Below are positions 56,691-62,381 of a stretch of 64,000 nucleotides of DNA, piece by piece. This stretch comes from Trueperaceae bacterium (GTDB lineage: Bacteria; Deinococcota; Deinococci; Deinococcales; Trueperaceae). Numbering within the stretch: position 1 is the stretch's first letter; every line of letters begins with the position of its first letter. Made by a program: the position numbers and the translations under genes. The notes under the pieces were generated by a model. The model was not told the DNA's origin, did not search any database, and saw nothing but the letters and a program-made list of their open reading frames with translations. Location of the stretch: positions 1,216,001 to 1,280,000 of the forward strand of contig JAXHLW010000013.1 of NCBI GenBank assembly GCA_034521815.1, given 5' to 3'.

Positions 56691-58187
56691 TCAGTTCCAG
56701 CGCCGCCGGGCGGCGCCGGCCTCGCGCGCGTCCGGCTCGACGGCGACGTAGCCGCGCTCCTCGCTCCGTCCGATGCGCCTGCGGGCGTGGAGCCCCTCGA
56801 GGACGAACTCGCCGGCGGCGGCACGCTCGTCCGCGTCGGTCCCGCCCGAGAGCGTGGCGCTGGCCTCCAGAAGCCCGGGCACCTGCGCCATCTCGTCCAG
56901 CCAGCGGTCGGCGGGGACCTCTCCGGGCAGCCGCAGGACGGCATCGTTCTCGAACCAGGCGACCACCTCCTCGACCTCGAGCTCGCCCGCGTGCGCCGTG
57001 AAGGTGCGGCCGATCGCCTCCCGGACGATGTCGCGGGCGACCGCCTCGCCGCCCTTGAGCTCGCCTTCGTACTCGAGCTCCAGCTTTCCGGTCACGGCCG
57101 ACAGCGCCTGGTACAGATCACTGATCCTCGCGACGGGGCGCGTGTCGCCGTGCGCCAGCGCCCGACGTTCGGCGTTCGAGATCACCGTCTCGAGCAGCGA
57201 GATCGGCAGACGCTGCGAGACGCCGGAATGCTTGTCGACCCGGGCGTCCTCGCGCGCGATGAAGGCGACCTGCTCGACGGCCTCGGCCACCCAGGCGGGC
57301 ACCAGCACGTCGGCGTCCCGCGCCGTCCAGGCCTCCTGCGCCGTGACGCGCATGCCCTCCTCGACCGTCCCCTGGTAGTGGGTGCGGACCTCGCTCCCGA
57401 TTCGGTCCTTGAGCGGCGTGATGATCTTGCCGCGGGCGGTGTAGTCCTCGGGGTTGGCGCTGAAGACCAGCAGCACGTCCAGCGGCAGCCGGACGGGGTA
57501 GCCGCGGATCTGGACGTCACCCTCCTGCATCACGTTGAACAGCGCGACCTGCACCTTGCCGGACAGGTCGGGAAGCTCGTTCACCGCGAACACGCCGCGA
57601 TTCGCACGCGGCAACAGGCCGTAGTGCACGCTGCGCTCGTCGCCGAGGCGCGTGCCCAGCCGGGACGCCTTGATCGGGTCGATGTCGCCGACGATGTCGG
57701 CGACGGTCACGTCGGGCGTGGCGAGCTTCTCGACGTAGCGCGCCTCGCGGGGCAGCCAGGCCACCTCGGCCTCGTCGCCCTGCTCGGCAACGATCGTTCG
57801 GCCTTCGAGCGAGACGGGCGCCAGCGGATCGTCGTTGAGCTCCGAGCCGGCCAGGACCGGCACCAGCGGGTCGAGCAAGTCGGTGAGCTGACGCAGCATC
57901 CGCGTCTTCGCCTGGCCGCGAAGACCCAGCAGGATGAAGTTGTGGCGGGCGAGCAGCGCGTTCACGATCTGCGGAACGACCGTGTCGTCGTAGCCGACGA
58001 TGCCGGGAAACACCGGCCCGCCCTGGCGAAGACGGCTCACGAGATTCGCCCTCAGCTCGTCTTTGACGCTGCGACCCGCGAGAGCGGCCCAGCGGCTCGC
58101 CCGGAGCTCGCCCAGGGTCGCCGGGCGGGCGCCGTCGGCGCCACCTACGGGGGTGCCGGCGAGAGGGGTGCGTGCGGGATCGTCCAT
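56691..58187 (-). CDS. AAA+ ATPase, magnesium-chelatase/MoxR-like
   Basis: Walker A variant [42 protein letters not shown]. Confidence 0.88.
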
Positions 58188-58284
58188 GGGGCATGGTAGC
58201 ACCGGCCTCCGGGCGGTCGATATCGCGCCAGACTGCAATGCGGCCGCCATCGTGCTCCGGTCCGGTGCCCAGGTACAGTGCGCC

Positions 58285-59550
58285 ATGCACGCGACGGACG
58301 CACCGATGGACGCACCGATGGAAGCACCGATCCGCAGCGCCGAGATCGTCGCGGTCGGAACCGAGCTGCTGCTCGGCGAGATCGTGGACACGAACGGCGC
58401 CTGGCTGGCGGCGACGCTGGCCGACCGCGGGGTGGACGTGTACTGGTCGGTCCGCGTCGGCGACAACCTCGCACGCGTCCGCGAAGCGCTCGAGGCGGCC
58501 CTCGAGCGGAGCGACCTGGTGGTCACCAGCGGGGGGCTCGGCCCGACCGAGGACGATCTCACCCGTGAGGCGATCGCGGCGGTGGCCGGCGAGACGCCGA
58601 CCGTCGATCCGGTGCTCGAGGACGAGCTGCGCGCCCGGTTCGCGCGAATGGACCGGTCGATGCCGGAAGCCAACGTCAAGCAGGCCTGGACGATCCCGTC
58701 CTCGGAAACGCTTCCCAACCCGCGCGGCACGGCGCCCGGCTGGCTGGTCAGGCTGCAGCGCGGCGGCCGGACCCGCTACGTCGCGGCCCTGCCCGGACCG
58801 CCACGCGAGCTGCTGCGCATGGTCGAGCACGAGCTTCTCCCCAGGCTGCCGCTCCCCGAAAGCCGGCTGTGGACCACCACGCTGAAGGTCGGCGGCTTGG
58901 GCGAGTCGCACGTCGCTGCGGTGCTGGCCGAGCTCACCGCCGGCGCCAACCCGAGCGTCGCGACGTACGCTCGCGCGGACGGCGTGCACGTCCGGGTCGC
59001 GGCCAAAGGCCCCGACGCCGAGGCGGCCGAGACGCTTGGGCGGCCGGTCGCGCTGGAGGTCGCGGCGCGGCTGGGCGACGCGGTCTGGGGCGCCGACGAC
59101 GACGATCTCGCGTCGGTCGTGATCGATGCCCTGCACCGTTCCGGTCGCCGGCTCGCGGTGGTCGAGCGCGCGACCGGAGGACGCCTGGCGTCCGCCCTTT
59201 CCGCGGCCGACGAGCGGCGCTCGGCGCTCGCTGGGGCCGTGGTAGCATGGCAGGTCGATGCGATGGACACGCTCGGGCCGCCGGCCGCCTCCCTTCGGGG
59301 CGCGAACGCCGCCGAGGCGGCGGTCGGAGCTCGCGCGTTCTTCGCTGCCGACGCAGCGATCGCCGTGGGCGAGCTGCGCGCGATGGACGACGAGGACGGA
59401 GGCGTCTCGGTGGACGTCGCCGTCCGCGATGCGCAAGGGGACGAGACGGACACGGTCCGCCTCCTCGAGCGCGGCGGGCCCTGGGTACGCGACCGCGTCG
59501 TGCTACGGGCCCTCGACCTCCTGAGGCGCCGCCTACGGGACACCCGCTAA
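58285..59550 (+). CDS. cinA: CinA family protein (MocF-like domain plus degenerate PncC domain)
   Basis: [46 protein letters not shown]; upstream of recA. Confidence 0.9.
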
Positions 59551-59595: not shown

Positions 59596-60710
59596 ATGGC
59601 CGAGACGAGCAGCGATCCGCGCCGCAAGGCGCTCGAGACCACCCTTCTCCAGATCGAGCGTCAGTTCGGGAAGGGTGCGGTGATGCGGCTTGGGGACGAG
59701 TCGCAGCGGGAGAAGATCGCGGTGATTTCGACGGGGTCGATGAGTGTGGATCTGGCTCTGGGGATCGGTGGGGTGCCGCGGGGTCGGGTGGTGGAGATCT
59801 ACGGTCCGGAGTCGGGTGGGAAGACGACGCTGGCGTTGCACATCATCGCGGAGGCGCAGGCGGCGGGGGGCGTGGCGGCGTTCGTGGACGCGGAGCATGC
59901 GTTGGATCCGAGCTACGCGGAGAACCTGGGCGTGAACGTGAGCGATCTGTTGGTGTCGCAGCCGGATACGGGGGAGCAGGCGCTGGAGATTACCGAGCTG
60001 TTGATCCGGTCGGGTGCGGTGGATGTGGTGGTGATCGATAGTGTCGCTGCGTTGGTGCCGCGTGCGGAGATCGAGGGCGAGATGGGGGATGCGCATGTGG
60101 GGTTGCAGGCGCGGTTGATGAGTCAGGCGCTCCGGAAGTTGACGAGCGTGCTGGCGAAGTCGCGGACGACGGCGGTGTTCATCAATCAGATTCGCGAGAA
60201 GATCGGGGTGATGTACGGCAATCCGGAGACCACGCCGGGGGGTCGCGCCCTGAAGTTCTACGCGAGTGTCCGCATGGAGGTGCGTCGCAAGGGGGACGTG
60301 AAGGTGGGGGCGGACAAGGTGGGGAATCGGACGCGGGTGAAGGTGACGAAGAACAAGGTGGCTCCGCCGTTCAAGGAGGCGGAGGTGGAGATCATTTTCG
60401 GTCGGGGGATCGACAAGATCGGGGATCTCCTGGGCATCGCGACGGATCTGGATGTGGTGCAGAAGAGCGGGTCGTGGTTCTCGTACGGGGAGACGCGTTT
60501 GGGGCAGGGCAAGGAGAAGGCGGGCGAGTTTCTCGCGGAGCGTCCGGAGCTGTTGACGCAGATTCGTAGCGAAGTGACCGAGCGGCTGAAACCGAAACCG
60601 AAGGGGGACGCGGCGGCCGACGGCGCGAGCGCATCGGCGTCGCCGAGCGCGGCCGGCGCCCCCGCGAACGACGGTCCGACCACCGGGACGAGCAGCTCGG
60701 ACGGCGCGGC

Positions 60711-60714
<4 letters not shown>
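59596..60714 (+). CDS. recA: Recombinase RecA
   Basis: [50 protein letters not shown]. Confidence 0.99.

Positions 60715-62381
<1,667 letters not shown>

Follow-up and report, generated by a model that had tools for sequence, protein, structure and literature searches.

Two recA loci with a near-identical, cytosine-poor core in a Trueperaceae bacterium and its relatives

The recA gene described here lies in a stretch of 64,000 nucleotides from the genome of a Trueperaceae bacterium (the window, positions 1216001-1280000 of contig C13). The source genome is called G000 below; its assembly is 83.5% complete and consists of 13 contigs, referred to as C1, C12, C13 and so on. The product is identified as a RecA recombinase by its matches to Pfam RecA (PF00154, 1.3e-137) and RecA_C (PF21096, 3.8e-21). 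Upstream of recA, in the same orientation, lies cinA, which ends 46 nt before it, and downstream lies rny, encoding RNase Y, whose start overlaps the recA stop by 4 nt. This cinA-recA-rny arrangement, which we call locus A, is common to the whole order. The true start of cinA is probably later than that of the listed open reading frame (ORF), because its Pfam domains begin at residue 115.

Codon usage divides this recA into a core and two ends. A first-pass annotation, made from the sequence alone, had described a core synonymously recoded to G- and T-ending codons with sharp edges, set between ends and flanking genes in the ordinary codons of the genome, and our counts bear this out. At fourfold-degenerate third positions the core (59653-60603, read in frame) has 137 G, 20 C, 18 T and not a single A, and the two tails together have 18 G, 16 C, 2 T and 2 A. 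The corresponding counts of G and C are 121 and 144 in cinA and 102 and 183 in rny, where C-ending codons are preferred. The style switches within one 20-codon interval at either end, and the N-terminal segment contains 17 G and 22 C. The hand counts of that annotation (34 G and 10 C in 59761-59820, 18 G and 22 C in 61441-61500) are exact, and the abundance of GAT, TTG and AGT that it reported for the core is real: twofold codons end in T in 38% of cases in the core versus 9% genome-wide, TTG makes up 37% of leucine codons versus 6%, and AGT 22% of serine codons versus 2%. The pattern thus consists of C to G (less often C to T) at fourfold sites, C to T at twofold sites and CTG to TTG, and is better described as avoidance of C than as a preference for G. 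The amino acids shift too, with 69-88 Gly plus Val residues in skewed recA cores against 60-71 in unskewed ones, and the first codon positions of skewed cores have more G and T and less C.

To rank the gene we used a skew score, (G-C)/(G+C) at fourfold-degenerate third positions, computed over two crude ORF sets. In the first (n = 1561; mean -0.02, s.d. 0.15) the recA of the window ranked first, with a skew of 0.62, and second place was taken by another recA gene (0.58). In a relaxed set of 1949 ORFs, of which 1612 had at least 100 fourfold codons, tuf (0.79) alone stood above recA (0.62), and the next value was 0.41. An annotation-free scan of raw GC skew over 17,457 segments of 900 nt gave two tuf and two recA copies as its top four loci, at 0.47 for the tuf copies and 0.38 and 0.35 for the recA copies, with a mean absolute skew of 0.04.

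The second recA, which the first-pass annotation had predicted, lies on contig C1 (Pfam RecA 5.8e-137, RecA_C 3.2e-21; Table 1), and a protein search of G000 returned exactly these two recA matches. Alignment of the two copies over window positions 59654-60613 (960 nt) shows 6 differences. Five of them are synonymous (59757, 59758, 59847, 59892 and 60486) and the sixth, at 60605, is a Gly/Glu replacement; all lie within 240 nt of the left edge or 130 nt of the right edge, with none between 59893 and 60485. Up to 59653 and beyond 60613 the copies are unrelated, which applies to their first 19-24 codons, their C-terminal tails and their neighbour genes. The two RecA products share their core, and each has an N-terminal segment and a C-terminal tail of its own. 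As had been anticipated, the limits of nucleotide identity are those of the recoded tract, although the edges first proposed, 59665 and 60590, were only near the true ones at 59654 and 60604-60613, which lie 11 nt and 14-23 nt farther out. Since the edges of the recoding and those of the shared homology coincide, the recoded tract and the shared tract are the same thing.

The surroundings of the C1 copy contain comEA/comEC-like, Hsp33-like, rhomboid-like and idi2-like genes, a gene for a 2-oxoacid:ferredoxin oxidoreductase alpha subunit (oforA) and a ClC channel gene, named from reading their translations, recA and NucS alone having been checked against Pfam on this contig. Judged by this gene content, the copy stands in ordinary chromosomal surroundings rather than in a mobile element. 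The first-pass annotation had listed a chimeric assembly as an alternative. An artefact of this kind, with the core as a chimeric or collapsed piece of a genome assembled from metagenomes, could be suspected because G000 contains strain-heterogeneity duplicates of about 97% identity and one tuf copy with broken frames. We give it practically no weight, since the single-contig genomes G013 and G020 and two further genomes have the same two-copy architecture, and independent metagenomes carry the junctions. When contigs of four metagenome runs from three studies were aligned to the window, the C1-type flank was found joined to the core at 59653 in all four runs and at 60613 in two of them. The two copies are also distinguished by their 6 differing sites, and the C1 variants at 59757/59758 are present in two of the four runs. 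Unitigs that enter from the direction of cinA extend as far as 59682, 29 letters into the core, which is too few to count as bridging.

Table 1. Location of the features discussed in the text; positions without a contig name are those of the window, the others are contig positions in G000
Feature	Location	Strand or orientation	Remarks
recA, locus A copy	59596..60714	+	372 amino acids; cinA-recA-rny arrangement
Locus-specific N-terminal segment, codons 1-19	59596..59653	+	Ordinary codons; absent from the second copy
Converted (as interpreted in the text) and recoded core	59654..60604	+	Near-identical to C1:332543-333493; synonymous C and A depleted on the coding strand
Locus-specific C-terminal tail	60605..60714	+	Ordinary codons; sharing with the second copy continues for 9 bases, to 60613
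Canonical G-quadruplex-type motif, single	59760..59788	+ (coding strand)	Pattern scan
cinA	58000..59550	+	Pfam MoCF_biosynth, CinA_KH, CinA; ORF as listed
rny (RNase Y)	60711..62381	+	Pfam RNase_Y_N, KH_1, HD
recA, second copy (locus B)	C1:332470-333582		Pfam RecA, RecA_C
Locus B promoter-like element	C1:332330-332400		Conserved
NucS	C1:205974-206873		Pfam
tuf copies	C13:312767-313984 and C13:518418-519632	Same orientation	Self-BLAST
SQD1/epimerase-like gene, single-copy	C13:300856-302160	-	Name from reading the translation
KaiC-like pair	C12:130943-132862 and C13:943026-944543		Self-BLAST

Two full recA genes are also present in four relatives (G005, G013, G019 and G020). In all five two-copy genomes the cores of a genome's own copies are 98.7-100% identical over 967-991 nt (98.97-100% in the four relatives), whereas each copy has a tail unlike that of its partner. 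Locus B, in which recA is followed by oforA in the order (idi2-small ORF)-recA-oforA, was found in seven genomes of at least four genera (G000, G005, G006, G008, G016, G019 and G020), and the duplication is therefore old. In some relatives recA has moved; in G013, for example, the second copy is not beside oforA. Each of the two loci has its own conserved synteny. Between genera the RecA proteins are about 77-87% identical, and in a tree of the core each A copy is joined to the B copy of its own genome, with support values of 99/98 for G000, 100/100 for G005, 95/96 for G019 and 100/99 for G020. Fourfold sites compared between genera are no more alike than expected from composition in the case of G000 and G020 (0.64 versus 0.64), and nearly so for G000 and G019 (0.75 versus 0.70). 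Paralogues within a genome are thus closer than orthologues, synonymous sites included, in a defined tract with diverged flanks and with residual differences lying towards the tract ends. Because within-genome cores are near-identical, copies pair by genome and intergeneric fourfold sites are at chance, we conclude from these comparisons that the recA core is apparently under concerted evolution by recurrent interlocus gene conversion.

Skew in the recA core varies among the relatives. The recA cores of nine of its genomes are skewed (0.47-0.89), and 14 loci of four sister families, each with a single recA, have skews of -0.64 to +0.06, like their flanks. The family members G023 and G024, with one recA match each, have recA skews of -0.26 and -0.23; in G023 the sole recA lies between genes for an acyl-CoA dehydrogenase and a major facilitator superfamily transporter, without cinA or rny. 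Pooled over both copies of G000, G005, G019 and G020, the fourfold counts of G, C, T and A are 1120, 171, 162 and 9 in the tract and 70, 76, 9 and 7 in the tails, the two copies of a genome not being independent. As fourfold sites are saturated between genera and the skew is nevertheless kept, the force behind it is still acting. In short-read genomes of the family (G004 C193, G007 C17, G008 C45 and G016 C6, C9, C12 and C14), contig ends carry N-terminal pieces of recA, as in G004, G007 and G008, and end pieces of tuf, with the cores missing from the bins; these supposed single-copy markers thus behave as assembly-breaking repeats. A wider search of contigs with RecA returned, among the matches listed, distant phyla only, and no further two-copy cases.

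The same comparisons bear on a foreign origin, in which a core acquired from a lineage with G-ending codons would have been copied into both loci. The sharp edges and a codon style that looks alien in this genome would fit such an import. However, the tree places the core inside its own family, whose clade has 99/98 support, and shows no grouping with another lineage, its identity falls smoothly with taxonomic distance, and saturated fourfold sites with a kept skew are not those of a frozen import; in addition, tuf would need the same donor. We know of no genome-wide codon usage with such a degree of C avoidance. An acquired core is, in our view, barely credible, which agrees with the argument of the first-pass annotation against distant transfer.

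The regions upstream of recA differ between the two loci. At locus A, recA directly follows cinA, unlike at locus B, where all five genomes with upstream sequence carry a promoter-like element (TTGCGC, 18 nt, TAGTAT or TAGGAT) about 70-90 nt upstream of recA, overlapping an AT-rich 15-bp palindrome. No other site within one mismatch of this palindrome was found in G000, and so no regulon. Nor did we find a Peptidase_M78 (IrrE-type) or LexA DNA-binding domain in the 83.5% of the genome that is assembled. The B-copy tails share an acidic ending across genera. On the strength of the promoter-like element at locus B and the position of recA behind cinA at locus A, each of the two genes probably supplies the shared core under its own regulation.

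Self-BLAST of G000 revealed two dispersed near-identical gene pairs only, recA and tuf. The tuf copies match over 1219 nt at 98.7% identity and lie about 206 kb apart in the same orientation. The first-pass annotation had pointed to a similar G-ending style in the duplicated tuf genes of Thermus, and the tuf of G000 shares the style of the recA core, more strongly: its fourfold sites comprise 149 G, 6 C, 64 T and 1 A, and its skew is +0.79 to +0.92, compared with +0.75 for the recA core. The match in the second tuf copy contains one TGA, one TAG and one TAA as well as two gaps, reflecting either an assembly error or a decaying copy. Across relatives, tuf pairs are 98.7-100% identical in 11 genomes, and in six genomes of the family tuf retains 0-6 C among 188-223 fourfold sites. 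G030, G027, G031 and G039 combine a skewed tuf pair (0.49-0.87) with a single, unskewed recA.

Highly expressed single-copy genes have the opposite bias, and the skew is therefore not a normal trait of such genes, a possibility raised at the outset. The skew of fusA, the operon neighbour of tuf, is -0.18, and rpsL, rplC/D/B, rpsC, rplP, nusG, rplK/A and rpoB/C range from -0.15 to -0.38, so that the codons of recA and tuf are not those of a general adaptation to expression. Selection on translation or on the mRNA, for instance for a codon set suited to stress-time translation or for low mRNA structure, would be in line with both genes being abundant or damage-induced and with G-ending codons using other tRNAs than C-ending ones. 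Yet ribosomal-protein genes, fusA and rpoBC prefer C, T-ending codons, which share their tRNAs with the C-ending ones, rise as well, and both the tails of the same mRNA and the single-copy recA of relatives are exempt. This explanation is already largely refuted, and the probability left to it is very small.

A related possibility is that transcription-associated mutation alone is responsible, through deamination of C to U and of A to hypoxanthine on the non-template strand, conversion merely spreading the result. Deamination of this kind leaves a coding strand that has lost C and A and gained G and T. The direction of the recoding fits that signature, T is up at twofold sites, and the skew follows the gene and not the replication strand. 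But a G+T excess is not seen in single-copy genes: fusA in the tuf operon, rpoBC and the ribosomal-protein genes are heavily transcribed and have the opposite bias, the recA tails on the same transcript are not recoded, and the single-copy recA of relatives is unskewed. Moreover, deamination alone gives T, not the C to G change seen at fourfold sites. We regard this account as quite improbable. Replication asymmetry is not the cause either, because cumulative GC skew places locus A on the lagging and locus B on the leading strand. On C13 the turning points of the cumulative GC skew are near 611 kb and 1.88 Mb; cinA-recA-rny would then be transcribed head-on to replication, and the C1 recA and both tuf copies co-directionally with it.

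Selection could also act on the DNA itself as a recombination substrate, synonymous sites being tuned for pairing or conversion, or, in a variant of the idea, recA being tuned to be repaired first after shattering of the genome. RecA prefers GT-rich or TGG-like single strands, and according to PMC3763553 it binds TGG repeats preferentially; in G000 the enrichment of G+T is on one strand and confined to the two gene pairs whose copies stay identical. On the other hand, a search of 14 genes gave no common Chi-like or TGG-type word in excess of what codon composition predicts, and G-runs are not enriched relative to synonymous shuffles (z from -3.0 to +1.9, 18 genes). Selection for G-runs, G-quadruplexes or a Chi-like word was rejected on this basis, the shuffles yielding as many, and the G-quadruplex alternative of the first-pass annotation finds no support beyond base composition; the single motif of this type in the core is most likely a by-product of G enrichment. 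The pairs of G013, G026 and G033 stay identical without skew, selection on recombination rate would be very weak per synonymous site and the purge is nearly complete, and the amino-acid shift looks like a cost rather than tuning. We therefore consider substrate selection unlikely.

The mismatch-repair genes of the family may be relevant to the recoding. G000 encodes a two-domain NucS (NucS_C 2.5e-24, NucS_N 1.3e-12), and MutS_I (PF01624) and MutL_C (PF08676) gave no match in this genome, where at 83.5% completeness not found does not mean absent, nor in any of ten same-genus genomes. These two domains were found in 16 and 18 other relatives, respectively. They were also undetected in G012, G015, G016, G018, G019, G020, G022, G023 and G024, and all the genomes negative for them carry a strong NucS. 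Three members (G011, G013 and G017) have both MutS_I and MutL_C and two (G014 and G021) have MutL_C only, all five without a NucS match above the cut-off. From these domain searches, most of the family seems to run on NucS/EndoMS alone. Within the family, tuf skew is positive in all ten genomes with NucS and no MutS/L (0.40-1.0) and negative in all four with MutS and/or MutL, in a comparison of the genomes with tuf data, which leaves out G023, G024, G008 and G022, where tuf is unassembled. The enrichment of T in tuf is largest in NucS-only genomes (37% versus 9% in the flanks in G020, 47% versus 18% in G018) and absent in MutS-bearing skewed genomes. G023 and G024 combine a strong NucS and no MutS/L match with a single, unskewed recA. 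Loss of MutS/MutL as a general cause was discarded, as it fails outside the family.

We read the force behind the recoding as tied to conversion because the tuf pair is marked as well and single-copy, highly expressed neighbours are spared, and because the single-copy recA of relatives with the same repair genes is spared too. The recoding would then be the equilibrium signature of a directional, strand-asymmetric force acting on DNA only where two dispersed copies convert each other. The interpretation that we prefer, with a probability of about 0.6, is that of two old, syntenic recA loci with a core maintained by conversion, recoded by a strand-asymmetric force linked to conversion, with NucS as a possible agent. 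According to PMC6159521, NucS/EndoMS cuts G/T, G/G and T/T mismatches and not C/A-type ones, a specificity known for Corynebacterium and archaeal enzymes only, and PMC5290159 reports that NucS inhibits homeologous recombination. In a first step, the heteroduplex between the copies might be formed mostly by one strand relative to transcription; in a second, its mismatches might be processed unequally, NucS/EndoMS seeing G/T, G/G and T/T but not C/A-type mismatches, so that the choice of strands that pair would decide whether a difference of G or T against C or A is recognized or passed over. A one-strand heteroduplex combined with this blind spot would give a bias along the keto/amino axis, as observed. 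Both steps are a proposal, and the sign of the bias is not derivable from the present data.

It is also possible, although we hold this more specific idea only tentatively, that the recoding reflects a form of biased gene conversion not described so far, which would act on one strand in favour of keto bases (G and T over C and A), arising from a one-strand heteroduplex and a mismatch filter blind to C/A. The filter could be NucS or, in Thermus-like relatives, the C/C blind spot of MutS. Keto-directed conversion of this kind would rewrite nearly every free site of concertedly evolving genes and push amino-acid composition towards Gly and Val, even in recA, whose product catalyses the exchange.

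Several observations weigh against the preferred interpretation. In G013 the tuf and recA pairs are 100% identical, with distinct tails, and have no skew (-0.10 and -0.02), and the tuf pairs of G026 and G033 are 99.8-99.9% identical and yet prefer C; these three genomes keep identical pairs without skew and show that conversion, though required in these data, does not suffice. Of the first-pass suggestion of strand-biased conversion with a second recA, the second copy and the coincident edges have thus stood, whereas the strand bias is unproven. Outside the family the link to NucS fails: G027, G031 and G039 have MutS/L and a weak or no NucS match, yet a skewed tuf, and in G025 and G033 the skew is absent in the presence of both systems. 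The association with NucS inside the family may rest on one or two evolutionary events. The differences between copies, 0-14 per pair and some of them at alignment ends, are too few for a directional spectrum and display no clear strand asymmetry, and the signal is seen in two gene families only, both highly or inducibly expressed. Finally, the single-copy SQD1-like gene stands at the opposite extreme, with 27 G, 192 C, 6 T and 11 A at fourfold sites (skew -0.75), the lowest of the 1612 long ORFs and the fifth strongest locus in raw GC skew. A gene thus need not be duplicated to acquire an extreme, strand-specific skew of its codons. The cause of the C purge is thus not shown; a strand-asymmetric conversion bias, possibly acting through NucS, is the explanation we favour.

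The closest known parallel is the concerted evolution of tufA and tufB (Lathe & Bork 2001, Kondrashov 2007, as cited in PMC6053082, Wang & Chen 2018). As described there, tufA and tufB are, like the recA pair, two dispersed copies in conserved contexts, near-identical at synonymous sites within a genome and diverged between orthologues, and the concerted state persists over deep splits; the tuf pairs analysed here behave alike. In contrast to tufA/tufB, the gene concerned is recA, the core alone converts, the products keep different ends, and the converted tracts carry a strand-specific purge of C. The same paper surveys long-lasting concerted evolution in prokaryotes and lists 26 genes including tuf, and the term recA does not occur in the part of its text available. 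Concerted evolution of a family-wide recA pair, as read from these genomes, is new for recA. A strand-specific purge in converting bacterial paralogues was not found in the literature searched, the scope of which did not extend to the older Thermus tuf papers.

More than one recA per genome has been described before, as in Deinococcus deserti, Myxococcus xanthus and Bacillus megaterium. The chromosomal and plasmid forms of D. deserti, RecAC and RecAP, are 81% identical, its two plasmid recA copies encode the same protein and have silent third-position changes only (PMC3564903), RecA1 and RecA2 of M. xanthus share 64.6% identity, and B. megaterium also has duplicate, diverged recA genes (PMC7029660). 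The pairs described there have diverged and divided their functions. In the genomes analysed here, by contrast, the core is identical between the two chromosomal copies in different genera, and the differences are confined to the promoters and to about 20 residues at the N terminus and about 30 at the C terminus.

GC-biased gene conversion is a non-adaptive directional force tied to recombination, which favours G and C equally on both strands. The recoding resembles it in the directional shift of synonymous sites and in the leak into amino-acid composition. It differs in that C is lost and T gained (in twofold, Leu and Ser codons), along a strand-specific keto versus amino axis; instead of a strand-symmetric rise of G+C at silent sites, only 20 of 175 fourfold sites in the recA core are C. 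As for NucS, G000 is in an Actinobacteria-like state, and the specificity reported for the enzyme lies on the same base axis as the recoding, but the available text of PMC6159521 and PMC5290159 makes no link to biased conversion of paralogues or to codon skew. The latter reports seven Deinococcus-Thermus species with both repair systems, whereas most of the family of G000 seems to have NucS only.

These findings have practical consequences, since recA serves as a single-copy marker in phylogeny and in checks of genome quality and is duplicated in this family. Its core breaks short-read assemblies, and its sequence tracks the genome and not the locus. One catalytic core with different ends and promoters amounts to a natural experiment on the tuning of RecA by its ends and its regulation. 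If the interpretation holds, the restriction of the C purge to conversion tracts would show directly, at the genomic level, that conversion in bacteria can be biased in a strand-asymmetric way, and such a force could override codon adaptation and change protein composition.

Two further duplicates in G000 were considered and set aside. A PPK2-like partial duplicate (447 nt, 94.6% identity) was tried as a third case, but its skew is merely mild, and a KaiC-like pair, about 86% identical over 1.8 kb with skews of 0.00 and 0.03, is a diverging and not a converting pair. Lastly, G000 contains tandem or small-contig duplications at 96-98% identity, involving C6, C7 and C10 against C12/C13 and tandem blocks at C13:1667675-1683560, C13:961753-986044 and C12:16766-31987, which look like co-assembled strain variants and thus like assembly artefacts.

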